From Rhizaria sp. SCN 62-66 (taxonomy: Eukaryota): a stretch of 64,000 nt of DNA. The stretch spans positions 1-64,000 of the forward strand of contig MEDY01000060.1 of assembly GCA_001724265.1 (NCBI GenBank), written 5' to 3'. The notes under the pieces are model-generated. The model ran no database searches. It saw only the letters and a list, made by a program, of their open reading frames with translations, and was not told where the DNA came from. This document shows positions 3,391 to 64,000 of the stretch, one piece after another (the stretch's first letter is position 1; each line of letters begins with the position of its first letter). The translations under genes and the position numbers were made by a program.

Positions 3391-5984
3391 TTACGCGCCC
3401 GGAGCCGTGAGCGCAGCGGCGCCGTGCAATGCCAACAACGCTTCCTTGCACTCTGCGACGCCCTTCTCGAGCGCATCGATGCTGGCGCGCCCCGTCGTGC
3501 GCGCGGCAACAAGCGCCATGGCGCGGCGCAACTGCTGCTCGAGCGCCTGCTGAGCCGCGGCGGCCTTCTTGCCGAGCGCGTCGTGCTGCGCGCGGGCTGC
3601 CTTCATCTGCTCGTTGCACTGCTGGTCCGTCAGCAGCCCGCCCAGCGCGGCCTGCTCCGCCTCCATGCTCACCTGTTGTGCACAGACAGAGACAGGGGCA
3701 CACAGCACAGTAGTCGACAGTGTCACCATCATGTAAAGAAAAACGCGCGGAGTGCAGATAACAAGGTGAGCGAGTGATAATATAGTTTGTTGACGTGTGC
3801 AATTCGTGTTGTCGCTTGCTCTTCGTATGCGATGTAAACGTAACATTTCGTGTGTAGATTCTAGACGTACCACGGCGGCCTCAGTCTTGGCGTTTTCTGC
3901 GGCGATCTTAGCGCCCGTCTCCTCGAGCCGCTGCAGCTCACCCGCGGCGCCGTCCCGCGCCGCGCGCGCCATGGCCATCTGCGCCTGTACCGTGGCCAGC
4001 CGCGCCTGCGCCTCCTCCCGCTGCGCCTGCGCCTCCTCCCGCTGCGCCTGTGCGGCCGCGAGCTACGCTGCCCGCTGCGCCTGCGCCGCATCGGCGCGGC
4101 TCTGCTGGCGCTTGCGCGCGGCCTCAGCCTTGCGGACCAGCGCCGCCGTCTCCCGCTCGAGCTTGGCGCGCTCTTGGCCCAGCGCAGCCGTCTCCGCCGC
4201 GGCCGCAGCCAGCGCCGCGCTGCGCAGTGAAAACAGTGTGGGTGTGCGTGTGTGTGTAAGAAAGAGAGAAATAAGAGAACAGTGAGTCAATCGAGTGATC
4301 TGTGTCATTAGCCAGTGAACGTTACGATAGCCTTGAGATAATTTGAGCGCTAGACATTGCTCTTTGACGGACCTGTGTTGCTGCGCGTTGGACTCAACCT
4401 GCGCTCGCACCTGAGCAATCTCATTCTCGACTGTCTCCACGGCCTTGCTGACCTGCTTGACCGCCTCCGCCGCGTTCTTTACAGCATCGGCGGCGTCCTT
4501 CACCGAGTCCCCACCGCGAATCGCCGCGGCGGCCTCCACAGTCTCAGCGTCGACGCGCGCGCGCTCAGCCCGCGCGGCCCGGGCCTTGTCGCGCATTACG
4601 GCGGCCTGCTGCGCCACCGCGCGCGCCGCCGCGGCTTCGGTCTCGCGCGCAGCCAGCGCCGCGCGCGCCGCCGCCAGCCCGGCTTCTGCGCCCCCCTGCC
4701 CCGCCTCGGCCTCCGTGCGCGCCGCCGTGGCCTCAGCCAGCGCCGCACGCTCCGCAGTCAGCGCCGCCGCCGCGCGGTCCGTCTCGGCCTTAGCCGCCGC
4801 GAACGCCGCGGCCTCGGTGGCCTCCTCCGCGGCCGCCGCGGCCAGTACCGCTGCGATGTATTGTTCCACAGTCTCAGTCTCGATTTTAGTCTCAGCGCCG
4901 GTCTCACTTTCGCCCGGTGTAATACTGGCATGTTTGCGGCCGCAGAGCGTGCGCAGGGTGGCGGCGTCGCGCTGCAGCGCCTCGAGTTGCTCCCGCGCGG
5001 CGACGCACTCGGCGTCGAGCGCGGCGGCCTCAGCCCGCAGCGTCTGGACCGTAGCCGCGGCGTCAGCGAGGGCTTCCTTGCGGCCCGCGGCGGCCGTGGC
5101 CAGCGCGGCGCCCTGGGCCGCCTCGGCCGCGGCCGCCACACCGCTCTGCGCCAGCGCGCGCTCGACCTCGCTCAGCCGCAACGCCGCAGCGACCTCGGCC
5201 TGCCGCGCTGCGTCAAGCTCGGCTTGCTTTGCTGTGCGCGCGGCGGCTGCGGCCGAGGCGCGCGCCGCCGCGGCTGTCCACGCGCGCGTCGCTGCCTGCG
5301 CAGAGCGCTCTAGTGCGGCCACATCAGCACTGCTGTCAGCGCTGCTATCAGGGCGACTGTCATTGCTGTCACTGCTGGCGGCGCTGCGGCTGCGGCAGCT
5401 GCTGCTGCTGCTGCTGCTGGCCTGGGCGGCGACGAGGCTCTTGACGGTGGCCTCGGTGGTGCTACGCGTGTCCTGGATCTCGCGCCCACAGGCGGCGCCC
5501 ACAGACTCGATGATCGTTGATGTCTGCTGCGCGCTCTGCACCACTTCTTGCGTCTCCTTGACGCGCTCCTCTGTGCACGCGCGAGAAATGGGGAAGTTGG
5601 TGAGTATTGTTGAAGGCTGAGGACAGTTTTTGTTTGTTTTGAGTTTGTATCGTGGAAATGTCGAAGCACGTACCGAGCTGGCCGATGATGGCGTTGCACT
5701 CCTGGAAGGCGGCGTGGACGGTCGCGGACGCATTCATGCTGCGCTCGCGCGACTGGCGCATGCGCTCCTGGAGGTCCGTCTCGTGGACCTGCTGCTCTGC
5801 GGACGCGCGCAGGACGTCCTCTGCGACGAGATGGTGAGAGGCGACAGTTCGGGGCAAAGGTTAGGTGGGTAACAAGAAATGTCAAGAGTGAGCGAGTGTG
5901 ACATCTGTTTGGAGGCACGGTGTGACCTTGGACTTGAAACCGTGTTGACGTACGCAGCATAGCATGGAGAGACTGAGAGCTCAT
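3391..5984 (-). CDS. Uncharacterised long coiled-coil protein. Five exons (5984-5954, 5820-5674, 5570-4373, 4219-3871, 3672-3391) with an in-frame TAG at 4065-4063
   Basis: Four GT..AG introns (three GTACGT donors, one GTCCGT) join the exons in phase. Continuous Ala/Glu/Gln/Arg heptad-like sequence. ORFs 4063..5733 and 3391..3978 are in the same frame, separated only by the TAG. TAA stop. Confidence 0.7.
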
Positions 5985-6860
5985 GTTTTTCTCGCTCGAG
6001 CTCGGCTTTTGTGTGGGGGCGATGCCGGGGTGGAAAGAGGGCGAATCAGTGTTGGTGAGGGAATGTTTGTTGGGGCATTTGCAGCGCAAGCGTTGAGGTG
6101 GGACGATTGGGACCGGCTTCACGATGGCGATTTAGGCGCTTATAGCAAGGCGGAATATGTTTTTGACGACGCGTCTTGCGGCAATTGGCTAAACAAGCTC
6201 ACCTCCGAGTGGCGGGGGCCTCGAAGCTCGTTCTCGCGTGGTGCAACTTGAAAAAAATTTCCAACCCTTGTTTTCGAAGATTCCTTGACGGATTAAGCAC
6301 TTATTTGGGAATAGCCATCCCATATAATACATTTCATGTTTTATCTCACCATCTATGCTATTAGTTTTTGTATTGGTGGTTTTTTCCCTTGTGATAATCG
6401 TACTTTTCAATGTTTCGCGTGCCGCGCGAGTTTTTCGGTCCACGCTGGCCCGACAAGCACGCGCGGTTGTTGAGCCCCTTTGACGAAGTAGACAGTTCAC
6501 CTGATTGGCGTCCGACAATCACGATTTACTCAACACTCCGGGAATTCAGCGATAATTTGTTGCCATTATTTTATATCCACACTGCGTCACACCGTGACCA
6601 TGCTCTTGCATGCAACATGCTTTTCCGACGCGTCGCCGACTTGCTCATTGCAAAGCGACGTGCCTCCCTCCGACCTCGTCTCACCGCCTACTCACTCACG
6701 TTTCTCCCCCCGAAATAACTCCAACCAGAGTTTTCACCGCGCCCGTGTGTTAAGAAGCTCTCTTTGTCCCCGCCCCATCTCCCAACTCCCCCACTGAGGC
6801 CTTCCGGCGTTTCTCTTGTCTGACGCGACCGTTCGTCGTCGGTCAATCACCTCTGTCCCA

Positions 6861-9800
6861 ATGTCTGTCGCGGCCCGCATGAAGATGTTTGCCGGCGGCT
6901 CCGAGTCCTCCGGACCCTCCGAGAAGGAACTTGTACGTCTCTTTGCTTTGTTCCTTGCCACATCTGTCCTATGACATAGATAACTGTTCTGCTGTCTCTC
7001 AATCATATGTTCTTGTCCCTCTCATTCGGCTCCAACGCTACCTCGATATCTTCTCGCTCGCATGGTGTTATTGCTTGATCTCACTCTATTTGCTCAATCT
7101 CATGCGTCTATCCGACTCTGACTCTGTGCTCGCATCCAAAACTCTCGTTTCGTCTCCCTTTCATCACTGCCCTCGTTGCACTTGCACTCTCTTCCCTTGC
7201 GCGTGCGTCCCCAACATCAACAACACCTCACCATCACAGGACATCGCGGAGAAGAATTACGCGCGTCGCGTCAAGGCGGTGCAGTGGGTCGACAAGGAGA
7301 TCCGCAAGCTGATCGCAGTGCTGCAGCGCACTGGCGGCAAGACGACCTTCGGCGCGCTCTTCGCCGTGACTCAGGACGACTTCGAGGCCATCTCGGGCAC
7401 ACTCGTCGCCGCCAAGAAACGCGGCGTGGTTGAGTACGAAGGCCAGCTCCTTATGCAGGGCATGCACGATGGCGTCGCCATTTCGGTACTGCGCGCCGAA
7501 ATCGAAGACTCTGTCGTCCCCGACAAGGCTGAGTTCATGAAGCAGGCCTTCGCGCCCGCCGCCGCCGGCTCCGGCTTCCAGAAGGTCGACCTCACCAACA
7601 ACGTCTGCGCCGTGTGTAGCAAGACGGTCTACGCCAACGAGCGTCTCGGCGCTGTCGGCAAGGTTTTCCACGCGGCGTGCTTCACCTGCGTCACATGCCG
7701 CAAACGCCTCACTCTGTCTGCGTTCTGCTGCGTCAACGGACTCGTGTATTGCCCGCCCCACTACCAGCAGATGTTTGCCGCCACGGGCGGCAAGTATGAC
7801 GACGCCGCCTCGCCCAAGCCCGCCGCTGGCACGCCGTCAACGCCCTCGTCTCCCATGCCCCCCGCAGCGCCTAAGCCCGCGGTCGCTCCACTGGCCAAGC
7901 CCCCCGCACCTGTTGCACCCGCGCCTGCGGCCAAGCCCGCGCCCGTCGCGCCCGCGGTGCCGGAGCCGTCGCCGGCCGAGGAGGCTGCGGCGGTCGAGGC
8001 CGAGCGCGGGCGCCTGCTTGCCGAGGCCGAGGCCGCGGCGCGGAAGGCGGCTGAGCTGGAGGCCGAGCAACGCCGCGTTGCGGCCGCGGCGGCCGAGGCC
8101 GAGGCCAAGGCCGCCGCCGAGCGCGCGGCCGCTGAGAAGCGCCGCGCCGCTGAGGAGCAGGAGCGCAAGGCTGAGGAGGCGCGCGCGGCGGCGGCGGCCG
8201 AGACGGCGCGCAAGGAGGCCGAGGCACAGCGCGCGCGGCTGGAGCGCGAGGCGGCCGAGATTGCACGGCTCAAGCAAGAGCAGGAAGCTAAGGAGCGGAG
8301 GGCCGCCGAAGAGGCCGCCGCGCGCGAGAAGGCTGCGGCCGAGCGCGCTGCCAAGGCTAAGGCCAAGGCCGAGGCCGAGGCTGCCGAGGCTGCGCGCAAG
8401 GAGCAAGAGCTGGCCGCGCGCGAGGCCGAGCTGCGGCGGAAGGAGGAAGAGCAGAAGCGCAAGGAAGGGGAGCGCCAGCGCGAGGCCGAGGCCGCGGCCG
8501 CCGCGCGCGCCAAGGCCGAGGCCGAGCTGGCGGCGCGTCGTGCCGCCGAAGAAGAGGCCGCGCGCAAGGCCGCTGAGGAGGCCGCGGCCAAGGAGCGCGC
8601 CGTGCGGGAAGAGCGCGAGCGCGAGGAGCGTGCGCGGCTGCAGCGCGAGCAGGCTGAGCTTGCGGCGCGGCGCGCGGCCGAGGAGAAGCGGCGCGCCGAG
8701 GAGCAGCGCCGCCGCGATGAAGAGGAGGCTGCGCGCAAGGCCGAGGAGGAGAAGCGCCGCGAGGAGGAGCAGCGCGCGCGCGCGGAGGAGAAGCGCCGCC
8801 GCCAGGAAGCCGCCGCTGCTGCCGCCGCCGAGGCCGCGCGCGTCAAGGCCGAGGAAGCCGCGGCGGCCGCCGCCGCTGCGGCTGCGAAGAAGGCCGCCGA
8901 CGAGGCCGCTGCCGCTGCTGCCAATGCGGCGAGGAAGGCTGCGCACGAGGCCGCGGCCACCGAGAAAGCTGCGGCCGAGAAGGCCGCCGCTGAGGCCGCC
9001 AAGAAGGCCGCCGAGCTGGCCGCGGAGCAGGAGCGTCTGGCCGCCGAGCGCGCGCGTCTGGCCGCCGAGGCCGAGGCGCGCGAGCAGGCCGTCCGCGAGG
9101 CTGCCGAGGCCGCGGCCGCCGCGGACCGCGCGCGCGCTGAGCGCGAGGCTGCCGAGGCCGCCGCCAAGGCCGCCGCGCGCGCCAAGGCCGCGGCCGAGGC
9201 TGCCGAGGCGGACAAACGCCAGCGCGAGCTCGACGCCGAGGCCAACGCGCTCATGGCGCGGCTCGAAGCGATGGAGCGCGCCAAGGCCGCCGCCGAGAAC
9301 GAAGCCCGCGCACAGGCCGCGCGCGCCGCCGAGCTGGAGCGCAAGCGCAAGGCCGAGGAAGAGGCGGCCCGCTCCGCCGCCTCCGCGGCCACCGCGCGCG
9401 AGGAGAGCGACCGTGCGGCCCGCGAGCGCGCTGATAAGGAGGCGCGTGCGGAGAAAGAGGCGCTTGAGAAGGAGCGCCAGGACCTCGCGGCGCGCACCAA
9501 GGCCGAGGCCGCGGCGCGCGCGGAGGCCGCTGCGAAGCTCGCCAAGGAGGAGGCCGAGGAGCGCGCGCGGCGCGAGCGCGAGGACGCCGCCGCGCGCGCC
9601 AAGGCCGAGGACGAGCGCCGTGCTCTGGCGGCGCGCGAGTCGCAGCTGGCTGCGGAGCGGCGTGCGGCCGAGGAGCGCGCCGCCAAGGAAGAGGCGCAGC
9701 GCGCGGCCCAAGCGGCGCAGCGCGCGCGCGACGATGCTGAGCGCGCCGCCAAGGACGCCCGCGCGCGCGAGCAAGCTGAGGCGGAGCGCAAGCGCCAGAC

Positions 9801-11376
9801 CGACATGGTGCAGCAGCAGAAGCAGGAGCTGGACGCCGCGTCTGCGCTGGCGGCGCGTTTTCGCACCGCAGCCGCAATGCTCCCGCCGCGCGGCTCCGTC
9901 CTGCCGCCCGGTTCGGCCTCGGCCGCGCTGTTCAAGGCGCAGGCGCAGGCGCGCGGCCCCAACGTGGGCGCGAGTGCCGCCGCCGCCGCGGCCAAGAGCG
10001 CGGGCCCGCCCGTGGCGTCGCTGCCCGTGGCCGACTCGCGGCCCAAGTGGAAGATCGAACAGGAGGCCCGCGAGCAGGCGCGCCGCGACGCCGAGGCGCA
10101 GGATGCAGAGGCCCGCGCGCGCCGCGCACAGCTCGTCAACGGCCCGTCGTCGCCGACCGCGGCCGACGCCGCCGCCGCCGCCGCGTCCGCCGGGGCCGCG
10201 GGTCGTCCGCAGCCGCCGCGCATGCCGCCGCCCGTCAGCGGCGCCGGCGCTGGTGGCGCGCGCATGCCGCCCCCGTCTGCGGCACCTGCTGGCGCGAGTC
10301 CGCCCAAGTTTCGCTGGAACCCGGTCTCGACTGCGGCGGCGCAGAGTGCCAAGGCGGCCGGCGGCGGCGAGGATGAGGAGGACGAGGAGCCGTCGGCGTC
10401 GCTGCTGTCTGCGCTGTCGGACCTGCCGCCGGAGATGTACTCGCTTTCGATCGACATCGGCATGCTGGGCAAGGCGTACCGGTTGTTGGCGCTGGCAATC
10501 CGGCATCTGATGCGCAACGGTACGTATGAGACGGATATCTTCCGTCATTGCATTAACCAGAAGGAGACGGACTTGGTGGTGGCTGTGCTCGAGTCGGGCG
10601 TCAACGCCGAGAGCGTCGACCTCAACCAGTACTCGGTCAACTCGGTCGCCTCTGCGCTCAAGCGCGTGCTTAAGCAGCGCGAGCCGCTCGTCACGCCGCG
10701 TCTGTACTCGATGCTTATCGAGACGCAGCAGCGCCGCCTCAGCCGCACCGCGACTGCGGGCGCTGCCGCGGCCGCCGCGGACGGACAGGGCCGCTTCCTG
10801 GAGATCGCGGCCGCCATCTCTGAGCTTCCCGAGAACAACAAAAAGGTGCTGTGCATGCTGTTCGACATGATCGTGCAGGTTGGCCACAACGTCGCGCAGA
10901 CGCAGATGTCGCCCGAGCAGCTGGGCTACACGTTCGCGCCCATCGTGATGCAGCCGACCAAGATGAGCGAGAACTTGCAGCGCGTGGCGCAGGAGCAACA
11001 GGCCGTGAACAAGCTCGTCGCGGACATGATCCAGAACCACGACGCGATCTGGGACAATGTCATCCTCGAGTCGAAGCTCTCGCTCGCGCGCGCGCCCGCG
11101 AGTGGCGTGTTTGTGCCCTGCGCCGCGGTGACCAAGCAGAGTGACGTGAAGCGCGCCGACAAGGGCGACGTCACCGAGTGCTCCATGTGCTCCAAGGCCT
11201 TCAGCATCATCCGCTGGAAGACGGCCTGCGTCGGCTGCGGACAGATCTTCTGTTCCAACTGCTGCAGTCACAAGGCCCCTGAGGCTGTCAGCGGCAAGGT
11301 CTCGCGCGCTGAGCAGTTCATCGGCAAGGGCCTCCTCTGCTCGCCCTGCAACAAAAACCTCAACGGCAGCGCGTAA
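6861..11376 (+). CDS. Multidomain cytoskeletal regulator: Costars domain, LIM domain, long charged helical region, RhoGAP and FYVE-like zinc finger. Exons 6861-6932 and 7240-11376, about 1,400 aa
   Basis: Costars: VDKEIRKLI..FGALF..FEAISGTLVAAKKRGVVEYEGQLLMQGMHD. LIM: CAVC..FHAACFTCVTC..YCPPHY. RhoGAP: DIFR..VASALKRVLKQREPL..LPENNKKVL..MSPEQLGYTFAP. C-terminal CSMC..CVGCGQIFCSNC..CSPC. Phase-0 GTACGT..CAG intron at 6933-7239. Confidence 0.85.
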
Positions 11377-12228: not shown

Positions 12229-13764
12229 TCACCAAATCTCGAGCTGCGCGTCGGGCTGTCCGAAGCGCGCCTTATTCCGGTCAAACAGCGCGACGAGCGT
12301 CTGCGTGTACCGCCCGTGCCACAGCCGCACATCCTCAAGCGTTGGCTGCGCAATACGCGGCAGCCGCAGCGGGGCGCCGAAGACGGTGTGCATGCCGTGC
12401 GTGCTGTGCGGCAGCAGTCCCGGGGCGCCCCAGGGGAGGACACCGGGAATCTGCCAGCGGTTGAGCCAGAGTCGCAGTCGCAGCAGGCCTGGCACGTTTG
12501 CGTAGTTGCGCTCCTCGCCGAACGTGTAGACTGGCAGCAGCGCGTACCCGTGGCGCAACGCGAACTTGACGAACCCGCGGCGGCGCTTGAGCCACACGCG
12601 GTGTCGTCCGCGCGCGTAGATAGTCGCCTCTTCGAACCCGCCTGGAAGCAGCGCGACGTCGCGGCCGCGGCGCATGAGCCCGGCCACCGTGGCCGCGTCG
12701 GCCGGCGCGTAGCCGCACCAGCGGAGGATGAAGCAGAAGGGCGCGAGGCGGTGCAGAAAGGAGGAGATGAGGAACGTCACGCGCGGGTTCGCTGCATGTA
12801 ACTGCGGACTAGCAACGCCGCCGAGCCAGAAACTCATTGGAAAGATTCCGTGCGGGTGGAAGGCGAGCATCACCGGCGGACTTCCTGTCGCTGCAGACCC
12901 AGACTGCGACTGCGCGCGAGAAATAGCGTCAGACAGTGGAGCGGATAGATTGGCGTTGGCGGCGGCAAACTTGGCTGCTGAGAGCGGGGCGGGCGGGGAC
13001 TGGAGGCCTGGAGGATCAATGTCGTCGCTCTCGCTGGCGCACTCGTCATAGTACGGAAGCGGGGAACCCATTTCCTCCGATGGCGACGGCGACGGCAGCT
13101 GCTACAAGTCAAAGTACGACAACGGTGGCGGCAGAGCGGGCTGTTTGGGCCAAGACGCAGCCTCCTCGCACTGCAGCTTCAGTGGCACCAGCTTCAAATC
13201 GTCTCCAATCTCTGCCTTGGCCTCAGCCTCTGTGTTGGCGTTGGCCTCGGCCTTCGCTACTGGAGCATGCTGTTGTTCTGCGCACGCTTCGGCCTTAACT
13301 GCGGCGGCGCTATCAGCGCTAGATTCGGCCTGCGTTGCGGCGTCCGCGTCGAAGGGCTCGTGACGAATAGCGCGCAGGGCGCCCTCTTCAAAGGTGACTG
13401 AAGTGCCGTGCGGCTGGTAGAACTCGTGGGGACGCGTGGCGCTGCCCAGGAGCCAGATGGCGAATGGCCAGGGCTTGATTTCAACCAGGAGCGCGTAGAT
13501 TTGCGGCAGCAGCAAGCACGTTGCGGCGACGATGTAGCCGCGGTAAAGCAGAAACGCAATCAAAAATGGGCAGATGGAGCTGAATACCCACACCGTGATC
13601 AGAAGTCCGATCGCAACCTTCGATAGCAGGTGCTGGGCGGGCGGGAACGGTCCGCTCGTGCTCACGTGCAGATAGTCCGACTTTGGGTCAAGGGACTTAT
13701 TGGCCGCTGCGGGGGCCCTCGTCGCAGAAACAGCATCGGAATTGCAGAGCATAGCCGATGCCAT
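12229..13764 (-). CDS. DGAT2: DGAT2/MOGAT-family acyltransferase (511 codons) with an in-frame TAG at 13104-13102
   Basis: Motifs FHPHGIF, LLPGGFEEA, RRGFVKFALRHG, LPVYTFGE and VFGAPL lie in ORF 12229..13071. The N-terminal transmembrane segment lies in ORF 13102..13764, in the same frame. TGA stop. Confidence 0.88.
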
Positions 13765-14106
13765 GCGTTAAGTACGGGAAATGCAGTTTTATCGTTCGTA
13801 GAGGCAATACAGAGTGATGCTGCGATCAGTTTCTTCCCCCCTTCGTCGCGTCTCGTGCAGCCCAAGAGGGGTGAGTGCGGTCGGAAGATCTTCAGATAGC
13901 TGGACTACCATGGGCATTCCGTCTATTGATCAAAGAGTGTGATATGCGATGGCAACGATTTATATTCCGTTCGATTTTTAAATTAATTCTCGACAACATT
14001 TGTTCTACCTTGCTCTTTTGGCTTCTTTTAGACTCGCTTTCAGGCTCCCCTTCCTGACAGCGCCACCGATTGCAGTCCAGGTTCAGTGGCGACTGTCATC
14101 TTGCCA

Positions 14107-35846: not shown

Positions 35847-35943
35847 AACACGAAAGATCAGGATTATTATTGATTGTTATTGAATACTGTATTCTTGAGT
35901 TAAATCCGGTCACTGTCACGTCTGATTTTAAATGCTATTCGAT

Positions 35944-50170: not shown

Positions 50171-50534
50171 TCACTCAAGCATGCTCATGAGTTTCGCGAA
50201 GCAGGCGACGAACCCAACCACAAGCAGCACAACTCCTACCGCGAACAGGACTCCCGAAGCGTCCACACAGTCCTCACAGTACCCGACGCGACTCCGGCCG
50301 ACGTACCGCCGCTTCTTCGCGTTCCCGCGCGCCGCCGGCGACGTGTAGTAGACTTCCTGAGGCGGGAGGCCAAGCGTGCCTGAGGAGGCTGCGAGAGACG
50401 CCGCGTCGCTGCTGCCGGGGGCGCCGGTGACCGCGCCGCCAACCGAGCCCAGTGCACCGAGGGCGGAGGCGCCGACACCGATGGCCGCCGGCTGCTGCGG
50501 CTGGGGCTGCGGCTGTAACTGAGGATAGTATTGT

Positions 50535-50573
<39 letters not shown>

Positions 50574-51139: not shown

Positions 51140-51438
51140 TATTGGCTCTATTCAGGATATTAAAAGAAATAAATACATGAAATGCAAGGTTAGTGCACAT
51201 AGTTGAAATCTGGTGTCACCGCTCGGATCAAGACCTCGTTTCGGTTGATTCAAAATTGCCTATCTCGACCGCACCCAAACTCGTTTCCAAGTTGAGCAAG
51301 TGCCAACTTTGACACTGCAAAAGTCGTTTATATATCCGATTTAGGCACATATAATAGCACTTACCTTAATTGACACACGAGCTCATTGACAATCTTTGTT
51401 TAAATACTCTTCAACACTCGGTCTAACACTCCCAGGCA

Positions 51439-53328: not shown

Positions 53329-53982
53329 GAATGTGGTTCTATCTATCAAGCTTATTTATTGTTTATTTGGGGTAAATCAACGTTAGATCTATATAATGCG
53401 GCTATTCGTATAAGGCCATTCAAAATAAACGTGTTCCAAAGAGATCTCGTGCACAAATGTCATGTTATAAAATTGCCACCACAAGCCCTATTTCGGATTA
53501 CTCAAGCAGGGTGCAAGTGAAACGGACGAATGGCAAGCTAAAAACCCAAGTTCGATGCTACAAACCTCGTCAGTATAGCGATCTGGTGATGTTTTTGAGA
53601 TCAACCAGAAGAACCCTCTATTATATATCTATAGTATACGCGATGCCATCAGTTTAAATTGTGTATTTCGCGGGTAAACAACGAGACCTTGGAGAACGTT
53701 AAGATCCTCGCGTGCTTGCTTCTTTCTTGGGTTTCACGACATCTCAATCTTCCTCTACGGATGATCGGGGCTATTATGACACAAACATATGTCTAACTAT
53801 GAAAATATCTTGACGGCTTGTACAATGTCGCTAGATTACGCGAGATATTCGTGTAGATATCTAGCCGTGCCGAGAGTGCACGTTTGAGCGTCACCCAAAA
53901 AAATCTCTGCAGAATCAACGCTTCAACAACCTCACCGTTCCCTCACCTCGTCATGCCTTTCCCTGCCCAGCTCATCTACACA

Positions 53983-55398
53983 ATGATGCGCAAGACACTT
54001 GCCCATCTCGCCGCCAAGTCGTCATCCTCGTCCGCTGCACTGCTCGCCCGCGCGCTGCCCCGCGCCTCCTTCGCCTCCCCCGCGTCCGCCCCCGCCGCCG
54101 CCGCCGTTGCTGCCGCCTCCGCGACTCTCCCCGCGACTCCCCCGCACGTCTCGGCGACCGTGCAGGGCGAGCGCTACGCACAGTATCTTGACTGCGCGAG
54201 CGCGACCGTGGGCATGGTGCTCGAATCCCCTTTCGAGCTCACTTTCCGCAACGCCGACCGCGTCGCCCACCAGGCCATGTTCTACGAGTTCAACCGCGTG
54301 CACTCCTCCGCGCCCTTCGCCAAGTCGCTTGGCTTTGCGGACATCCCCATGCCCGGCTCGCTGCTGCTCGCGCACGCCGGTGCCATGTCCCACGTCGACA
54401 CGTCGCGCGAAGTCTGGGACCTCGGCTTCAAGAACGCCGTGTACGTGCGCCCTGTGATGGCTGGCGATACGCTGACCAAGAGCTTCTGCATCCAGTCGCT
54501 GCGCAACACGACCAAGGGCGACGGCACGATTATGTCGATCAAGTGCGAGCTCTTTAACCAGTTCGGCAAGCTCGTTTTCACGCTTGACAAGCAGATGCTC
54601 TTCAAGGACGTGACCAACCCGTTCGCCATCACTGCCGCCGTCGCCGCCGCCAACGCCGCCGCGGCCGCCGCTGCCGCCGCCGCGCCCGTCCCGGCGTCTT
54701 CTCTCAGCGCAACAACAGCAGCCGCTGGCGGCAGTGGCGCTAACGTCCCCGTGCGCCGCTCCCTCGTGGCGTCGTCTGTTGTCCGTGAGACGATCCTTGA
54801 GAACGCGCAAGCGCTGACCTTCCCCGCCACGCGCCCGCTCGTCCCGCGCCAGTGCTTGCTCCACGTGCCCGTCGTTCCCCTGGGCACGTCTCGCCACCTC
54901 GAGTTCTGCACTCGCCACCGTCTGTCGCATCCGCTCCACGTGAACCTCGCTACCCACGCCCCGCAAGACCTCGTTCTGCCTGGTATGGCGGTGGTTAACC
55001 TTGTCCACGCCGCGACGAACCGATCGCTGTACGAGGTCCTCCACGAGACGACGCTGCGGTGCGATTTCCTCGACCGTGTTGCCCCCACGGACGCGGTGGG
55101 CGCTGTGACCTTCATCGAGGGCATCACAGAGGTCCCCGGTGGCGCCGCGGGGCGCGTGTCCGGCCTCGCTGACGTCCGCGCCGTCACGCTGGGCGTCAAG
55201 AACATCGACGTGTGCCGCGAGCTTGCCGGGGCAGAGCTGCCGACGGAGCTGTTCACGCGGGAGATGCGCGCAGAGGAACTCGATGCGTTCCTCGCGGAGA
55301 AGGTGCCCGCGCTCCGGGGCAAGGTCGTCCTGCGGTCGGTCCGCTCGCTGCTTCGTCAGTCGCTGTATGCGCGCGCGGAGCAGATCCCGCTTCTGTGA
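53983..55398 (+). CDS. Double hot-dog (MaoC-type) hydratase, similar to mesaconyl-CoA hydratase, with a mitochondrial-type presequence
   Basis: SSAPFAKSLGF, DLGFKNAVYVRPVMAGDTL and ELFNQFGKLV. A second hot-dog unit contains HPLHVN and VAPTDAVGA. ATG at 53983. Confidence 0.72.
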   Translation: MMRKTLAHLAAKSSSSSAALLARALPRASFASPASAPAAAAVAAASATLPATPPHVSATVQGERYAQYLDCASATVGMVLESPFELTFRNADRVAHQAMFYEFNRVHSSAPFAKSLGFADIPMPGSLLLAHAGAMSHVDTSREVWDLGFKNAVYVRPVMAGDTLTKSFCIQSLRNTTKGDGTIMSIKCELFNQFGKLVFTLDKQMLFKDVTNPFAITAAVAAANAAAAAAAAAAPVPASSLSATTAAAGGSGANVPVRRSLVASSVVRETILENAQALTFPATRPLVPRQCLLHVPVVPLGTSRHLEFCTRHRLSHPLHVNLATHAPQDLVLPGMAVVNLVHAATNRSLYEVLHETTLRCDFLDRVAPTDAVGAVTFIEGITEVPGGAAGRVSGLADVRAVTLGVKNIDVCRELAGAELPTELFTREMRAEELDAFLAEKVPALRGKVVLRSVRSLLRQSLYARAEQIPLL

Positions 55399-56158
55399 GC
55401 GAAGCGCATCGAACGCGGAAACGCACAAAGGAACAGATGCTGTGTACGCGCGCGCGGAGCAGAGCAGAGCAGAGCATAGCCCGCTCCTGTGAGCGTAGAG
55501 TAGATGCGCAAACGCCGATGTTGGGGTGAGCTGGTGATGATGGGAAAAGGCTGAGTAGTGCGCGGTGGGCGTGCTGTCTTGTTTTATATGGAGCACTGTT
55601 TATGCTGAGAGATTGAACTGTTGTTGATATAAGTATTGTTACTTCTGCTGACAAAAATGAAAACGAATAAGAATACTATGTACAGCTTATGTATGTGTGA
55701 TATAAGAAGAAATTATTGTTATTACTACAAATATTACCAAAAAAGAAAACAACAAACCAAACGAAAGTGCACACCACGCAACATAAAAGAGAATACATTT
55801 CACAAACTAGTAATCCAGGATTACTTTTCTTTTCCTATTACGAGAGTATTGTTATTGCGAGACAGTGTAGTACATTTACTCAAAGAAGAATAAGAATAAG
55901 AGAAACAGAAGAGGAGTGAGTGTCAGCCAAACAAAGTGCACAAAAGAAGCAATTGTTACGACTGTTCGTTTGTGACGAGTGACAAGATTACTGCTATTGG
56001 TTTGTGACGTCGCAACGAAAGAGATATGAGATCCTGGCCGAGTCACAACATATGCTCCATGAGTTCATGATCGCGACTGCACAATACGTAAGCCTTTTCT
56101 TTAGTATTAAACAGTCGCTGTTGTTCATTGCGAACTGTGGTTAACCGTTTTAAAGTGT

Positions 56159-57646
56159 TCAGTGGCCGTGATTAAAGAAGCCGAGGACGTCCTTGATGAG
56201 GATCTGCCAGCCCACCATGACAACAACTTCGACAACGATGAGATAGATGATGATATACTCAAGTTTCTCACTGTGCGCAACCTCAAGCTGGTCCGCAACC
56301 ATGTCAAACAGCTCCTTGAGGATACCAAGACGCTTGTTGAGTAGACCAACACGCTTACCGAGCTCTAAGTACTTAAACAGCTTCTCGTACACGTGCTTAT
56401 ACCGGTCTTGCTCCCAGAAGAACTCGGGATCGTCGAGGATATCAGCGTGCAGGTTCACGTTGTTGCGCTCGATGAAGAGCTTGCCGATCTTCTTGGCCAT
56501 CTCGTTGCGCGTGAGACCGATCGAACCCGTCTTGGCCAGAGCTTCGGGAAGCTCCTTGCTCTTCTCAATCTCCTGGTCAATGCGCTCCTCAAACACGTTC
56601 AGCTTGACGCACTGCGCCATTGCAAAGGCGACCGAGAGCTTCTCCAGCGATGCGTCACCGGCGAGCATGACCGTGTCGTTGGACACGTGCGAGTGCGATC
56701 CGTACACATACTCCATGTGTTCCACGCCAGCCTTGCGTTCGCGCGCCGTCAACGGGTCCTCTTCGAAGCGTGCCAGCATGGCCACCAGCTCAGCCTCCTC
56801 GGCGGGGGTGCAGTTAAAGCAGGCGAGGCAGCCGTACTCAAACACGAAGGCGTGCTTTTGCATCGACAGCGCTTCGGTGCGGATCTTGATCTGGACGACA
56901 TCTGAGCCGAAGAATGTGAGCGAAACGCGTGACAACTCGAGAACTTGCTGCAGCGAGCGGGGCGCACCGCTCTCGTCGCCCGCGTCAACGTGAGAGACCC
57001 CAGAGCCCACACCACCAGCACCGGCACCGGCGGCAGCGGCCGCAGCGGCGGCGGCGGCGGCGGTGAGGTCTGAGGCGCTGGCACGGGTGGAGCGCACCGA
57101 CGGAAGCGACTGTTGCGCAAGATTCGAGGACGCGCGGGAAATGGCAGGCACAGGCGCGGCGGTGACGGCGGAGCGCGCGCGCGTGGTCATGAAATGGTAG
57201 AGCTTGGCGAGGTGGTACGTATCGCACGTGCAGTAGGCGGCGACGCGGTAGCGGGTCTCTTCCTCTTGTTCTTCACTGTCGGAGACGTCGGCGTCGGCGT
57301 GGCGCAGCGGGAGGCCCTCGGACTGCTGCTGCTGGATGCGTTGGGCGCGGCGCGAGCGGCGCGCGCGCTTGCGGTACTTCTGCATAGGCGCGACCGCGGT
57401 GGAAGCGTGCAGCCCTTCGTGAAGCCCCTCCGCGTGCGACTGAGCGAAGGAACCGTCAGAATGGTCGCCGCCGTCGCCGTCCGTGTGGTCGCCCAGGTGC
57501 ACCGACGTCTCACCGGGAGCGGTGTCATCGCTGCGCAGGACGGCCACCTTGGAGGACGCTTGCTGGGCCTGGGCGTGGCCCGAATGAGCGTGGATACTCT
57601 GACTCAGTGCGTCGTCGGCCAGCAGGGATTGCTTCTTGTCCGACAT
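56159..57646 (-). CDS. RMD1: RMD1/DUF155-family protein
   Basis: VAAYCTCDTY, FVFEYG, EKLSVAFAMAQCVKLNVFE, VNLHADILDDPEFFW, YLELGKRVGLLNKRL and KLEYIIIYLIVVE. Confidence 0.9.
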   Translation of the reverse strand: MSDKKQSLLADDALSQSIHAHSGHAQAQQASSKVAVLRSDDTAPGETSVHLGDHTDGDGGDHSDGSFAQSHAEGLHEGLHASTAVAPMQKYRKRARRSRRAQRIQQQQSEGLPLRHADADVSDSEEQEEETRYRVAAYCTCDTYHLAKLYHFMTTRARSAVTAAPVPAISRASSNLAQQSLPSVRSTRASASDLTAAAAAAAAAAAGAGAGGVGSGVSHVDAGDESGAPRSLQQVLELSRVSLTFFGSDVVQIKIRTEALSMQKHAFVFEYGCLACFNCTPAEEAELVAMLARFEEDPLTARERKAGVEHMEYVYGSHSHVSNDTVMLAGDASLEKLSVAFAMAQCVKLNVFEERIDQEIEKSKELPEALAKTGSIGLTRNEMAKKIGKLFIERNNVNLHADILDDPEFFWEQDRYKHVYEKLFKYLELGKRVGLLNKRLGILKELFDMVADQLEVAHSEKLEYIIIYLIVVEVVVMVGWQILIKDVLGFFNHGH

Positions 57647-58279
57647 CTGGAGAAGGCCGCAGCAGTGTCAGAGTCAAAAGAGGCAATAATGCAACAGAAA
57701 TAATAATGGTTATACGGAAATTTTGGTGAGCATGTGTGCATAGAGCTTCCTTATGGCACAGACCCAACTCAAAAAAGATTTACAGGCGGGCCTCCGTGTA
57801 CCTCGAGGCGACGCGGTTGACAAAAGTCTTAAACTGTACCCCATAGGCATCGACAGATAGTCCAGAGAACACACATGTCATTTTCTACTTGAAGAACCAC
57901 CGAGCCGTCTTCGTGCAAGGTTTATATCCAGTCCACACACGCCCTGCAATTATCTCGAAAGCGCCGCTCGTGCTTGGGCGACGCGTCAAACCGTTTTCTG
58001 GGAGGTTCGCAAAAATTCGTGGCCAGCATCCTCACCCAACCGAAACCAGTCGAACAAGATCGCACTGTGCTCTTCCAAATGTCCGATGTTGATGATATGA
58101 CTGAAATATCCAACGTATTTTTTTATTTTTATATCATATTTGATTAACAATGCCTCTGTGCTGCGCTATACCGTTGTGTCTCTGTCTTGCTGATCGCTCT
58201 CTGCTCACTCCACACGCCTCTTGATTGCCTCTTCTTTCGTGCGTGCCTCCTCCATTTGCCCCCGCCTTGCTTATACAGC

Positions 58280-59536
58280 ATGAGTTCCCAGGAGTCCCAC
58301 TTTACGGGCACTGCGTTTACGCTGTTTGACTTCAACTCAACCGCGTCTTCGTCCTCCACAACCGCGGTGAGCGCGACGTCCGTGCAGACCGTGCTCGTGC
58401 AAGGCAAGGTCGCCGCCGCCATCGCCGCTGAGAAGGACGCTCTGGCGCACCTCGACGCGCTCTCAGACCAGATCCTCGCCCACTACAGCGCCGACGCCCC
58501 CGAGTTATCTAAAACCACTGCCTTCGCGTTCCCCGAGCTGCCCGCGAAGCTCGCCGAGCCCGCGACCGCGGATCCTGTCGCCATGCTGGCCGCCGACTAC
58601 GCGCGCGTCTGCGCCGCCAACGCCGAGCTGGTGGCAACCACGCGCGGGCTGCAACAGATGAACGCCGAGCTGGCCATTTACGCCCAGCGCTTGCTCGCGC
58701 AGCTGGCGAAGTTCACCCCCACTGCCCCCGCGCCGCCGCTGCCGCTGCTCAAGGCCGCCGCTGCCGGCACCGCTGCTTTCGCCTCCGCCTCCACGGCAAA
58801 CGCGGTCAACGCCGCCGTCCGCGCCCCCGGCGGCAAGCGTACCACTGCTGCGACGGCGACACAGGCGCTGGAGGACGATGCCCTGCCCTTTATCCCTGCG
58901 GCGTTTGTCCCTCTGCTGCGCGCTGCGCCCGGTGGGGCGTTTGACGACGCGTGCGGTGTCTGCTGTGAGATCCGCGCACTGACCGCCGTGCCGCTCCCCG
59001 CCGGCCCCATCTGCCCGCCTACATCCGCCGCCAGCGCCAGCGCTTCCACTGCGACCGCACATGCGACTACGACGGCCGCGTTGCTGGACGACACACTTCT
59101 CGCACGCGCCGTCCTCCCCGGATCTTTCGGCGCCGCCGGTGGCGCTGCCGCTGCCGGCGACGGTGGCGACGGAGCGACTGACCCGGCGGACCCGGCGGCG
59201 GCGCCCGCGGTCGTGGCGGCCGCGGCGGCGCGCGCGGCCCGCGCCTGGGCCGCTGCAGAGGCCGCCCACACCGACAGCGTCCGCGCCCACGACCGCGCCG
59301 CCTCCTCAGACTCTACTACCGCAGCCACCGGCGAGTCTGCTGCGACAGGGACTGGCGCTGAGGCTGCTGGTGACGGCGAGGACGAGGACGGGGAGGCGGC
59401 TCAGAGTGGCGGGAAGAAGAGTGGTTGGGGCGCGACGTCGATGCGCGTGGCGTTGTGGGCGGTTCTCATGTCTGCGGTCGCCGCGGATGTGCTGCTGCGA
59501 GAGCGCGCGCTCAAGCTCGAGTATTTCCACACGTAA
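58280..59536 (+). CDS. Uncharacterised Ala-rich protein with a short coiled coil and a C-terminal hydrophobic anchor
   Basis: GC-rich ORF. ATG at 58280 follows a pyrimidine tract and CAG. C-terminal VALWAVLMSAVAADVLL. Confidence 0.6.
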   Translation: MSSQESHFTGTAFTLFDFNSTASSSSTTAVSATSVQTVLVQGKVAAAIAAEKDALAHLDALSDQILAHYSADAPELSKTTAFAFPELPAKLAEPATADPVAMLAADYARVCAANAELVATTRGLQQMNAELAIYAQRLLAQLAKFTPTAPAPPLPLLKAAAAGTAAFASASTANAVNAAVRAPGGKRTTAATATQALEDDALPFIPAAFVPLLRAAPGGAFDDACGVCCEIRALTAVPLPAGPICPPTSAASASASTATAHATTTAALLDDTLLARAVLPGSFGAAGGAAAAGDGGDGATDPADPAAAPAVVAAAAARAARAWAAAEAAHTDSVRAHDRAASSDSTTAATGESAATGTGAEAAGDGEDEDGEAAQSGGKKSGWGATSMRVALWAVLMSAVAADVLLRERALKLEYFHT

Positions 59537-60229
59537 GCGGATGTGCTGCGATGCAACAATTGCCGAGGTCAAGCTCGAGTAAGTTCACACATATCACACA
59601 GTACACCACTGTCCCCACACCGCTTACTGTATGATAATGCACTGCCGTCATAGTCGTCATAATACGAGGAACGGTACACTCCAAATTAGTTATGTTTTGT
59701 GATGTGATGTGATGTTTTGTTCTGTTTCACCATAGTTACCTAGCACAGAACGGACGAGGTGGGGACGCGGGGAATCAAACCGTGCGTGCCCCGACCGTCC
59801 GGTCAACCGACACATAGAGAGAGAAAGGCACAAGGAAGAGAAGATCCAACTGCACGCGGCAACACAACGATGTGTTTCTGTGTGTAGACTCAAATTAAAT
59901 GTTTACCGTTAAGCACTGTTATGATTACACAACCACTTTTTTAAAAATACAGTACGATCCCAAATCAGTTGATCCAATAAGACTACATATTGTGTATCTA
60001 TCTATACAGAAACAGGGAAAATGTAATTTAGGCAAATTGGCCAACTATCTAACAATATTAAATGCTGCGAACAGTTCCAACAAGCAAGCAAGCAAAAACA
60101 GCAAGTGTAACATCCCTGTGTTGTCCTGCTGCTGCTACATTGTGATGGATTGCTCCGTGGCTGTGTTCCAGCACGCGACTCGTGAGTACTGCTGTTCACG
60201 TGTTAAGCACGTGTTCTAAGTGCTCGTGC

Positions 60230-61716
60230 TCACGTGTAAGGCACGTGTTCGTCGAAAATGACCCACACAAGCGGCGTCGTCGTCCACGCCAGTACTACGT
60301 CCAGACTATAATGCATACGGCGCACCACAAGCAGCATACTTGCAGCGGCCGCAGCAGCCCACGCCAGTGCGGGCACGGCGCGGCCCAGTCCGCGCGAGCA
60401 CGAGCCCCGTGCACCGCCCATAGGAAGGACCCGGGGGACGCGGCGACGCGCAGGGTTGCGCCGGGAGCCGCTGGTCTTGGCGCCAGTAGCCAGAGCACCG
60501 TCACTATGGCCGCCATCGTAGCCGTCATACGCGTTATACACCGCGCCAGCGCCTGTGCCAGTTGCAGTGCCAGTCGCGGGGACGGCCTCTTCGTCGTTAT
60601 CGTCGTCATCCTCTTCGAAGTCGCCGTTAATATCGTCCGTGATATCCCCGTTGTTGTTGCCGTCGTTGTCATGGTGATGCGTCATATCGCCGTCCGAGTC
60701 CGAGTTGTTGTCGTCATGTGTCCCCCCGGAACGCGTGCCTTCATACCACACCCCTGCCCCCGCGCCTGACGCCGCGCCCGACGCCGCGGACCCATGCGGG
60801 TACACGCGCCAGAACCGCGTGACGAGCAGCGCACAGAGCACGTACACGACGGCCTGCGCTGAGAACACAGAGTCGCCGCAGCCAGTGAGCGGCGTCGAGC
60901 CGGCGAGGCCGGGCCACGCGGCGGGCCACGGGGACAGCGCGGCGGCGGCCGCCTCCATGAGAGTGGCGGGGGGCGCGTACAAAGGCGACTGGGGACGGCA
61001 CGTGTCGTTGGGGCCCGGGAGCGTGGTCGAGAGGAAAGACGCGATACGCAGGGTCTGGACGAGGACCGAGGCGGCGGCGACGCGGCTGAGCAAGCCTACG
61101 GTCGTTACGCGCGGGGACGGTGCGGTGGGGAAGAGGAACAGGGGGCGGCGGAGGAGAAACGAGAGCATGAAAAGCGCGGTACCGGCGATGAGGGCGGCGT
61201 GGAGAACCGCGCAAACCTGGTCCAGCAGCAGCGACGGCGTCGGGAGGAGCTCGAACCCCAGGTCGTACAACGGCTCGCGCGGAACGTGGAGGTAGTGCGC
61301 GGCGCGCGTGGCCAGGCTGTGGAGGTACTGGAACGCGTAGGCGAGGAGCAGCAGAGGACCGTGGCGGCGCAGTGCGCGGGCCTCGGCGGGCAGGTTCGCG
61401 CGCAGGGAGTGCGCCAAGCCCTGTGTTGCCGATGGCGTTGTGGGAGTGTTGTTCAAGGTGAGAGGAAGAAAGAGGGATTCAGTTGCGGATATACAACAAT
61501 AGAGATGAAAGAGGATCAGGGGAGGTAAAACCAATGTGGATTTGTCAAAGTGGTGGTGGTGGGTGGTTGGCGACGTACATTGAGCGTGCTAGTGATGAAG
61601 AGCCCGGGCTCGGCAACACAAGAGCGCAGAGAGCGGCAGCAGCTGCCCGACGACGCCGCAGACGCAGACGAGGAGCGCAGATGCTTGCCCTTGCCGAGAC
61701 GGTCTTCGTCACCCAT
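60230..61716 (-). CDS. Plant-type inositol phosphorylceramide synthase (IPCS/ERH1; sphingomyelin-synthase/PAP2 superfamily). Exons 61716-61579 and 61420-60230
   Basis: FQYLHSLA..HYLH..PLYDLGF, QTLRIASFLSTTLPGPN..CR, GCGDSVFS and RRMHYSLDVVLAW. Phase-0 GTACGT..CAG intron. Confidence 0.82.
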
Positions 61717-62286
61717 TCGCGCGGGTTCTTGGCGAAGTGGGATACGCGTGAGCGGAAGAGAGAGGTTTGGGGGAGGACGCGGTGGTGCACCAGAGCGCGG
61801 GAGAGGAGGTGACTGACTGCAGTGACGAAGTGAGGCAAAAGAGGTCAACTTTGTGAGAGGATTTGAAGGCATAAACCGCGACCACTGAAGCTATAATAAG
61901 AAATCCACACATAGAAATGACGTTTAATTAATAGAGCTCTACATAATCTTTATTTGTCGATCTCAGGTGAGATTGCGTATCGGAAATTCAAACGCGCCAC
62001 ACACCCAAAACCGTTTTCGTTCCGCATCGTGATTGGAGCTAGCAGTGAGCAGCTTCATTAAAACATATCTACCGAGAGATATACTCGAAATTATAGCGAT
62101 ATTTCTTCTGAACCTGGTTATATTTGCAGTACGTCTATTATATCAATTTATTACTCATACACAGACACACGTCTATACGTATTTTCAGCTTCTTTTCGCA
62201 CCCAGTCGATTTTGAACTTGATCAAACCCTCCAAAGCCTCCAACAGTCCTGCAGCGCTTCTCGTCTGCGCACCTGACGTCTGCGCG

Positions 62287-64000
62287 ATGCCCATCACCCC
62301 TGCCTTTACTTGGGAGCAGACGGACGACACCGTCAAGGTTGTCATCAAGTCCGTCTCCATCAGCAAGGCCAGTCTCTCTCTCTACGGTACGTTTTTGTAT
62401 TTTCAACACACGCTTGCAGTTACTCACTTAGGCCTGCATCCCACATGACATCCCAACCGCGCTCATCGCATGTACCGCTTTGTCTACTGCTTTTGTTGCT
62501 TGCGCGCGCAGTCTCTGATGTGTTTGTGAAGCTGAGCTCGCCACCTCTGCTGCTGCAGCTCGACCTCCTCCACCCCGTCGTGCCTTCTCGCTCCCGCGCC
62601 GTCGTCGTCCCGGGCGGCGTCGAACTCCACCTCCGGAAGGCCACCACCACGGCAACTACCGGCGCTGATGCCGCGTGGTCCGCGCTGCAGCTGCCTGCGG
62701 CGACTCCGGCGCAGGCGCGGTTATAGCGGCGCGCGGCGTCGATCGCTGCCCAGGACGCCGCCGCGGCCGCCGCGCGCGCCGCGGCCGCCGCGCGCGCGTC
62801 TGAGCGCAAGGCGGCCGCACGCGAGGCCGACTGGGACCTGGAGGCGCGCATGCGGCTGCTCGGCGAGCGGATCGTCCAAGAGGAGCGCGATGCTGCTGTT
62901 GGGGACCTCCTAGCATTGCATCCTCCCACTGCCACTTCTAACAACAACAGTCACAACAAAAACCGTAACAAGCAACTGATGGATGGTGATAGTGCTGCCG
63001 TGAGCGCTGCGAAAGTGGGGCCCGTTGCAGCGGACGCGGCAGATGACAAGCGTGGCGCGACCGCAACCGCATCCGACGCAGCCTCCGTCTCTAGTAGCAC
63101 CCCCTCACCGGCTGCGTCTCCTGCACCTGCGGTCGTTGCGAAGCCTACTGCTGCTGCTGCTGCGACAACTCGCGTTCTGCCGCCGCCGCGCGTTCTGCCG
63201 CCCCCGCGCCGCGCCGCCGGCTCCGCGGCTGCCGCGCCCGTGCTCGTTTCCTTCACCGCGCGCACCGGGCCGTTGGCCCACTTGCCCGCGCGTGAAGCCG
63301 CCGACCGGAAGGCCCTGCTCACGGTCCGTGCTCTCACCCGCGCCCGGCTCCGCGGCGGCCACGGCGGCGGCCAAGGGAGCGCCGGGGGCGGCGCGGTGGG
63401 CGAGGACGGGCTGAGCGAAAGCGAGCGTGTTGCGTGGGCTTACAAAGACAAAGGCGACGCGTTCGCGCGTGAGGGCGCGCTTAAGTCCGCTGTGGAGGCG
63501 TATACGCACGCGCTTGCGCTGGATGGATTCTGCGGGGACGCGCTGGCCAACAGGGCGGCGGCGAGGCTCCGGGCCGCGGCGGAGGCCTGGGGAGCGACGG
63601 CGGGCGCGGTCGCGGTCGAGCTGCCAGCGCCGGTCTACATCGCCGCGCCTGCAGCAGCCTCTGCTCGTGCGGCTGTGTCCGCATCTGGTGACGGGGAGCA
63701 GCAGCAGCATCAGCAGCAGCAGGATGACAAGAAGTCTCAGAACGACGACAATGAAGAAGAGGAGGAGGAAGAGCATTTTGATAGCGCCACTGCCTCCACC
63801 ACTACCACTGTTGATCCCGAGCCTAAACCGGAGTCTGAGCCTGAGTCTGCGCAAGTAGGTGAGGAGGATTTCATGGCGCTGCTTGCGCTGCCGTCCCCTG
63901 TCAAGCCCTCCGCGCCCGCACCGATGCCCACGGTCGCCGCGCCTCTCGCCTGTCGCCCCGCTCTTGCGGCCGCGGCGGCGCATTTGGCCGGCGCAACTGC
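62287..64000 (+). CDS. DNAAF4: Dynein axonemal assembly factor 4 (DYX1C1), CS domain plus TPR. Exons 62287-62386 and 62512 to beyond the window end, with an in-frame TAG at 62724-62726
   Basis: CS domain MPITPAFTWEQTDDTVKVVI..SDVFVKLSSPPLLLQLDL..LRK..W. After the TAG: RRAASI, LPPPR..VSFTAR..LPARE and the TPR AYKDKGDAF..AVEAYTHALALD..LANRAAARL, in the expected order. Confidence 0.88.

Follow-up and report, generated by a model that had tools for sequence, protein, structure and literature searches.

The first 64,000 nucleotides of contig MEDY01000060.1 (assembly GCA_001724265.1, deposited as Rhizaria sp. SCN 62-66; the window in what follows) contain four genes whose coding frames each carry a single in-frame TAG. 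An earlier note on this DNA, made from its letters alone, had reported these codons, and all four are present as claimed: site A at 4063-4065 (-), site B at 13102-13104 (-), site C at 45120-45122 (+) and site D at 62724-62726 (+). The genes encode a coiled-coil protein, a DGAT2-like acyltransferase, a CTF18-like ATPase and a DNAAF4-like protein, respectively. When TAG is taken as a sense codon, same-frame open reading frames (ORFs) merge at each site, over 3391-5733, 12229-13767, 45087-49712 and 62277-63998. The features at these loci are the following.

4063-4065, minus strand: in-frame TAG of site A, in the gene for an Ala/Gln-rich coiled-coil protein (gene A).
3871-4219, minus strand: TAG-bearing exon of gene A, lying between AT-rich GT...AG introns (4220-4372, and from 3870 downwards).
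13102-13104, minus strand: in-frame TAG of site B, residue 222, in a low-complexity insert of the DGAT2-like acyltransferase.
12229-13767, minus strand: DGAT2-like gene, with ATG at 13764 and stop TGA at 12229-31; Pfam DAGAT.
45120-45122, plus strand: TAG of site C, codon 8 of the gene for a CTF18-like AAA+ ATPase.
45099-49712, plus strand: CTF18-like gene, with ATG at 45099 and stop TGA; Pfam AAA (8.6e-13) and RFC1-like lid.
62724-62726, plus strand: in-frame TAG of site D, in the CS+TPR (DNAAF4-like) gene, directly 5' of a near-invariant Arg-Arg.
62287-62386, plus strand: exon 1 of the DNAAF4-like gene, starting with ATG 62287 and encoding the N-terminal half of the CS domain; matches the start of the public protein P0001.
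62387-62511, plus strand: intron of the DNAAF4-like gene, 125 nt, GTACGT...CAG, defined by its sequence and by exon phases that fit the protein alignment.
62512-63998, plus strand: exon 2 of the DNAAF4-like gene, which contains the TAG and runs off the window; identity to P0001 on both sides of the TAG.

By a codon model for which 12 other ORFs (11,623 codons) served as the training set, the TAG frame is coding on both flanks at sites A, B and D, and the remaining frames are strongly negative. The signal, followed in 15-codon steps, runs through the TAG at these three sites without a break. At site C the coding score begins at ATG 45099, 7 codons 5' of the TAG. A control scan for any stop codon with at least 50 stop-free, coding-like codons on either side returned no TAA, one TGA (weak and antisense to a gene) and four TAGs, which agrees with the earlier observation that the gene models hold no internal TAA or TGA. 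The four TAG matches are sites A, B and D together with a false positive at 36926 that is weak and antisense; site C, with 7 codons upstream only, lies outside the scan by design. The match at 36926 (+) was rejected as a fifth in-frame codon, as it lies antisense to an ORF, in a frame that contains three TAGs and has a coding score of 0.015 per codon. Six further TAGs, at 14029, 53854, 37983, 61591, 20576 and 3077, were also set aside: they precede the first Met of six ORFs and lie in non-coding-looking sequence. In-frame TAG is found at a frequency of 4 per ~17,200 codons (0.02%), about 8 times rarer than the rarest ordinary codons, or ~0.18 per gene model (4 in 22 gene models). All four locations, namely a coiled coil, a low-complexity insert, an N-terminal tail and a linker, are tolerant positions.

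The strongest case for an in-frame TAG within a functional gene, and the decisive one, is site D. A relative of the DNAAF4-like protein, P0001 (649 aa), was the one match among 8000 candidates scored in a word-index search. It aligns across the TAG without gaps, with 91/139 identities (65%) and a Ser opposite the TAG (ARL-TAG-RRAASIAA in the window, ERL-S-RRAASIAA in P0001), and remains collinear over the remaining ~420 residues 3' of the TAG, with 58% identity over the aligned length. Exon 1 matches residues 1-33 of P0001 with 25/33 identities; this match from the first Met of P0001 fixes the gene model as ATG 62287, the intron at 62387-62511 and one long exon 2. The public sequence of P0001 itself contains the DNAAF4 intron of the relative translated in frame. 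A profile search of 1.84 billion representatives yielded 154 matches at E <= 0.001, 150 of them listed, and 35 of those listed, selected because the region matched covers the TAG column, were aligned with the window. A fragment of the window itself, P0065, was excluded, and P0096 is gapped at the TAG column, which leaves 34 residues to be compared there. The two columns after the TAG are Arg in 32/35 and Arg in 34/35 of the aligned orthologues, respectively, and the TAG column contains A9, Q7, K7, S3, E3, L1, I1, M1, D1 and H1, the nearest relative having Ser and the next Ala. Four of the aligned orthologues were compared with Pfam: P0075 and P0077 contain CS and TPR above the curated cut-offs, P0067 has a TPR match and a CS-like match below the cut-off, and P0001 has none, as is also the case for the window's DNAAF4-like ORF. 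An N-terminal CS domain followed by C-terminal TPR is what we take to be the DNAAF4/DYX1C1 architecture. Searches with the DNAAF4 alignment gave no match in the metagenome collection or among viral contigs. An intron cannot remove one codon of a gapless conserved block, so the protein can have its TPR half only if the TAG of site D is decoded or is changed in the mRNA.

The DGAT2-like protein contains the Pfam DAGAT domain at residues 301-511 (2.7e-29). Its best homologue, P0002, is collinear with query residues 41-167 (E 2e-12) and 286-511 (E 6e-78), on either side of the TAG, and because it matches both ORFs, in order, these form one gene. The TAG itself lies within an insert of ~120 residues, and other DGAT2 proteins are without it. 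A metagenome search with DGAT2 found one contig, of 1 kb (L001), from a 63%-identical relative, which has 91 open in-frame low-complexity codons 5' of the HPHG motif and ends in TGA; its insert is not alignable to that of site B. L001 also shows one frame change inside the conserved domain at ~400-470, beside a T run, which is probably an assembly or sequencing indel. The C-terminal ORF of the DGAT2-like gene (P0216; window 12232-13071, -) is found with a single amino-acid difference, Pro->Ser in the HPHGIFPMS motif, on three other contigs, a variant that indicates that closely related strains coexist in the public data.

At site C, the CTF18-like ATPase has Ectocarpus CTF18 as its best named match. 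The next in-frame ATG after the TAG is at 46140, 339 codons downstream, and the intervening codons look coding. On the 5' side, the ATG at 45099 is preceded by a 530-nt AT-rich spacer, beyond which is the TGA of a small gene. At site A, the frame-0 coding score stays positive over the whole exon, from the acceptor at 4219 past the TAG and up to the donor at 3871/3870, where it drops. The in-frame reading is supported at site A by the exon structure and the codon signal, and at site C by the coding signal. The first intron of gene A, 4220-4372 (-), is 153 nt long; stop-to-stop ORFs read through it, because this length is a multiple of three and the intron has no stops in the exon frame.

Gene ends differ from gene interiors in their use of TAG. 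The 21 complete ORF-based models, a small sample, terminate in TGA (16) or TAA (5) and never in TAG, the same count as in the earlier note. Given a TAG share of 0.206 among the stop trinucleotides in 12.8 kb of non-coding DNA, the probability of 0/21 TAG ends is 0.008. The base that follows the TAG (+4), read at 4060-4062 (-), 13099-13101 (-), 45123 and 62727, is C at all four sites (A, TAG-CTC; B, TAG-CAG; C, TAG-CAA; D, TAG-CGG), whereas the true stops are followed by C in 2/21 models and by a purine in 18/21. For C in 4/4, P = 0.005 against the first-base C frequency of 0.268, and P = 0.0012 against the 2/21 of the true stops. At two of the four sites a Gln codon stands directly 3' of the TAG, CAG at B and CAA at C. 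In eukaryotes, termination is weakest with C at +4, and CAR-YYA after a stop is a leaky context.

Assembly error, which would have undermined the earlier proposal, does not explain the TAGs of sites B, C and D, since these recur in other assemblies and contigs. An ORF ending exactly at the TAG of site D (P0065) is represented in the protein collection by five contigs (MGnify, Logan, ENA), and ORFs ending exactly at that of site B by two contigs (P0213) and three contigs (P0214). In run X4, which belongs to another study, one contig is identical to the window over 44849-45638, the TAG of site C included, and sequence near-identical to 54000-63999, with site D, is found in runs of at least three studies, dated 2015-2025. 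The independence of these assemblies is partial, because samples may be shared. Region 44001-64000, with sites C and D, was further compared with contigs from runs X5 (polyA RNA), X6 (doubtful RNA, rated probably DNA), X2 and X4. Differing letters are listed at neither TAG, which is not proof of identity; the nearest X5 RNA piece starts at 45173, 51 nt 3' of the TAG of site C. Over the 20 kb compared, the X5 RNA differs from the window by G>A and T>C only, with no A>G. A few single-base differences are common to more than one run: T>C at 57735 and 61097 and G>A at 61115 to X5 and X2 (one study), and T>C at 58506 to X2 and X6. They are not seen in X4 where it covers them, 57735 being uncovered, and look like strain differences rather than editing. 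An apparent intron at 54627-54694 was rejected, as it is a GCC repeat, and the many apparent joints fall in GCC/GCG repeats and have short sides.

The pattern is probably that of a stop-to-sense change confined to UAG, very rarely used, in a non-ciliate lineage in which UAA and UGA are still stops. The in-frame position of the codons, the conservation across the site, the absence of TAG from gene ends and the reproducibility in DNA are shown directly. The earlier note had claimed just such a code, with UAG as sense and UAA and UGA as stops; this is partly supported, in silico, with TAG in frame in functional genes and at 0/21 termini. Several observations weigh against the reading. The sample consists of four codons from a single 64-kb window. 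Off-frame TAG is scarce as well, with 16 and 18 occurrences against 138 and 233 of TGA, and under this codon usage TAG would result from 66% of random single-base nonsense changes, so that the TAG-only pattern, and part of the 0/21, are less striking than they appear. The absence of internal TAA and TGA, which the earlier note had used as an argument, is accordingly a correct observation that is weak alone (P = 0.19 for TAG in 4/4). The pattern of C after the TAG was spotted post hoc, at four sites only. Gene A has no homologue and no Pfam match, exact look-ups of the ORFs ending at its TAG, from three ATG starts, found none in the protein collection, and no homologue was found for the CTF18-like N-terminus. 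Among the X5 and X6 pieces listed, no RNA piece crosses 45120 or 62724. The 64-kb window has no tRNA genes and no Rfam matches, and an amino-acid consensus can draw on one alignable site, D, where the column is variable. As TAG is rare in all frames and most nonsense changes yield it, it is homology and gene structure that carry the case, rather than these counts.

In such a code, the ribosome would insert an amino acid at UAG and continue, and would terminate at UAA and UGA. The most likely agent would be a tRNA whose anticodon has mutated to CUA. The rarity of the codon, its tolerant positions and the constant C at +4 fit a young or incomplete reassignment, in which decoding of UAG would still be competing with eRF1. 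The translation of UAG, the tRNA and the stage of the change are inferred. Regarding the amino acid, the earlier statement that the contexts fit Gln or Leu does not stand in that form, since the column at site D has seven Gln but one Leu among 34 residues, and Ser and Ala in the nearest relatives. Gln is possible and Leu appears disfavoured there; Gln, Lys, Ser, Glu or Ala would fit, and Leu, Tyr or Trp would fit poorly. A more specific version, to be taken as tentative and on balance not likely, would have UAG captured at an early or still incomplete stage, in a GC-rich flagellate with stramenopiles as its best named protein matches and of a lineage without a reported code change; terminator use would have gone, the codon would be sense only before C, where release-factor action is weakened, and the amino acid would perhaps be Ser or Ala. 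In the portions of the literature on code variants available here, Ser or Ala was not met as a nuclear meaning of UAG, and no nuclear code change was found for a stramenopile or a wastewater eukaryote, which is not proof of absence.

The same codons could be passed in other ways. Under the standard code, efficient programmed readthrough would let a near-cognate tRNA, for example tRNA-Gln, beat the release factor at UAG-C with no dedicated suppressor tRNA. The TAGs do stand in leaky contexts, with C at +4 in 4/4 (P = 0.005 against 0.268) and CAG or CAA next in 2/4, and yet we regard this explanation as unlikely. Known readthrough gives a minor extended isoform, and here the short products would be useless: a DNAAF4-like protein without its TPR half, a DGAT2 without its catalytic half and a CTF18 of 7 residues. 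No stimulating RNA structure is found 3' of the TAGs (z-scores 0.41, -0.30, -0.13 and -1.00), and UAG is never the ordinary terminator (0/21). In yeast, premature stops are read through more readily in a Gln-codon context, according to the available part of that work (PMC13192750), and readthrough near completion would in effect equal reassignment. Editing of the mRNA before translation, such as the A-to-I change of UAG to UGG (Trp) in filamentous ascomycetes, is improbable to a greater degree. Premature UAG becomes UGG by editing in Fusarium and Neurospora, where UAG is often hit because a U is favoured 5' of the edited A (PMC4817773, PMC11156358, PMC10776026, in the sections available), which would also yield a TAG-only pattern; the window is like this restorative editing in having genomic in-frame stops in otherwise full-length genes. 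The ascomycete process, as described in the same sections, changes the codon to Trp and is specific to the sexual stage of fungi without flagella (PMC4817773, PMC10776026), whereas the host here is not an ascomycete, because it has the flagellar genes IFT81 and DNAAF4-like. Trp is present in 0/34 orthologues at the site D column, and with Ser in the nearest relative and Ala in the next, an edited codon would not return the site to an ancestral Trp. Folding against shuffled sequences gave no significant hairpins at the four sites, the X5 RNA shows no A>G differences over the 20 kb compared, and editing leaves the absence of TAG at gene ends unexplained.

Genuine premature stops, that is nonsense alleles or young pseudogenes fixed in the population, are a very improbable origin of the four codons. 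Their all being TAG would be unremarkable (66% of random nonsense changes; P = 0.19), and all four lie in poorly conserved segments. Against this, 4/22 genes would be broken and still show full codon bias 3' of the stop, the DNAAF4-like gene has kept its 58% identity to a relative for ~420 residues beyond the stop, the TAGs recur across several archives, and the 0/21 TAG ends remain without explanation. Unrecognised introns that remove the TAG at A, B or C, or a TAG at site C that is the AG of a 3' splice site, have the lowest probability of the explanations considered. At site A a GTCCGC does lie 72 nt 5' of the TAG, with several in-frame YAG acceptors 3' of it, but the candidate intron is 77-79% GC with a strong frame-0 coding signal, while the delimited introns of the window are AT-rich. 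The TAG of site C ends in AG and is preceded by an AT-rich stretch, but the coding signal there starts at the ATG, before the TAG. Site B is inside the insert that other DGAT2 proteins lack, but the relative L001 retains an open in-frame insert, and neither B nor C has in-frame candidates with the GT(A/C)CGT donor pattern. At D the residues flanking the TAG are gapless against 34 orthologues. Splicing is thus excluded at D by homology and, judging by composition, is unlikely at A, B and C.

The remainder of the window is that of a compact, GC-rich eukaryotic genome. Its GC content is 0.58-0.71 in 4-kb steps, and long ORFs are densely arranged on both strands, separated by AT-richer spacers of 0.4-1.5 kb (GC 0.39-0.53). 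The delimited introns are few, AT-rich and 125-153 nt long, with the pattern GT(A/C)CGT...CAG. Pfam identifies eukaryotic genes for IFT81, the CTF18-like AAA+ ATPase, the DGAT2-like acyltransferase and an SPX-EXS protein, in addition to a Costars-LIM-RhoGAP-FYVE protein, RMND1, an amidase and a WD40 protein. By its flagellar genes (IFT81, DNAAF4-like), the host is taken to be a flagellate. The named proteins that match best are those of stramenopiles (oomycetes, Chrysophaeum, Ectocarpus), Plasmodiophora being one among many DGAT2 matches; these best named matches are weak evidence of a stramenopile affinity. A search of the genome contig collection with IFT81 gave no match, and a protein atlas yielded nothing on taxonomy for IFT81. 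Near-identical DNA is found in bioreactor and wastewater metagenomes, where 13/15 listed runs, from 8 studies, carry part of it. Contigs of 78,088 and 164,872 bases are seen in the protein collection. The SPX-EXS protein is encoded by a single ORF of 3370 codons at 21353-31465 (+), with SPX at residues 2195-2235 and EXS at residues 2335-2597, so that only its last third has known domains, the first ~2100 residues being without a Pfam match. The ORF at 6883-11376 (+) combines Costars, LIM, RhoGAP and FYVE, an unusual architecture. Finally, the 418-codon ORF at 35944-37200 (-) scores 0.08 per codon in the codon model, against 0.44-0.81 in four training genes, and has no Pfam match; its gene model or its strand is doubtful.

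Should the reassignment be real, it would be another independent case of UAG uncoupled from UAA, this time in a genome that is GC-rich and ends its genes mostly in TGA, from a habitat that is easy to sample. The low use of the codon (0.02% of codons), together with the constant C, would permit a direct test of whether reassignment goes through competition with eRF1. If early capture is what has occurred, the host would show the ambiguous-intermediate stage of codon reassignment as it occurs in nature. One consequence is practical: standard gene callers split the genes that contain TAG, and the public collection holds the truncated pieces, so that annotation is wrong wherever TAG occurs, in the host and in its relatives.

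Nuclear changes of UAG alone are known, in the available excerpts of the literature cited here, from a handful of lineages, namely one rhizarian, one fornicate and a few ciliate groups (PMC5304391, PMC11687900, PMC10553269), and the window is probably a new instance of this known type. The precedents in the earlier note, an uncultured rhizarian and the fornicate Iotanema, form an incomplete list, which omits the ciliate UAG-only cases (PMC11687900) and a ciliate reported to give UAA and UAG different meanings (PMC10553269). In Iotanema spirale (Fornicata), UAG encodes Gln and UAA and UGA are stops (Panek et al. 2017; PMC5304391). There, 204 UAG codons occur in 126 genes, 1.6 per gene, the gene ends are 104 UAA and 15 UGA, and the Gln assignment was made from hyperconserved positions (PMC5304391). 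The window is like Iotanema in that UAG is found in frame and never at gene ends, UAA and UGA are stops, and the host is not a ciliate. It is unlike Iotanema in having four TAGs in 22 models and ends that are mainly TGA (16 against 5 TAA) instead of mainly UAA, and in coming from a GC-rich wastewater genome whose best named protein matches are stramenopiles.

The rhizarian exLh (Sainouroidea) reads UAG as Leu, with 384 UAG in 71 genes, 5.4 per gene, and uses it more sparingly in highly expressed genes, a pattern that its authors took to mean that decoding is inefficient (Panek et al. 2017; PMC5304391). It shares with the window the reassignment of UAG alone with UAA and UGA as stops, but Leu, present in 1/34 orthologues at site D, is disfavoured here. 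For both exLh and Iotanema a tRNA with anticodon CUA was proposed, the anticodon being inferred and the tRNA genes not found (PMC5304391). In phyllopharyngean ciliates, UAG has come to encode Leu or Gln in three events, detected in metagenome-derived eukaryote genomes in which suppressor tRNA genes were predicted (McGowan et al. 2024; PMC11687900), and in one ciliate UAA and UAG are reported to encode different amino acids (PMC10553269). The phyllopharyngeans resemble the window in changing UAG alone, but they use UAG widely as a sense codon and prefer UAA as stop, whereas UAG is extremely rare in the window, which is GC-rich and has spliceosomal introns of 125-153 nt. The ascomycetes, in turn, differ from it in their Trp outcome, there being no Trp at the alignable orthologue site, and in that TAG is here also absent from gene ends. 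What would set the present case apart from the known UAG-only codes, if true, is Ser or Ala as the amino acid, or a genome-wide dependence on the C that follows.

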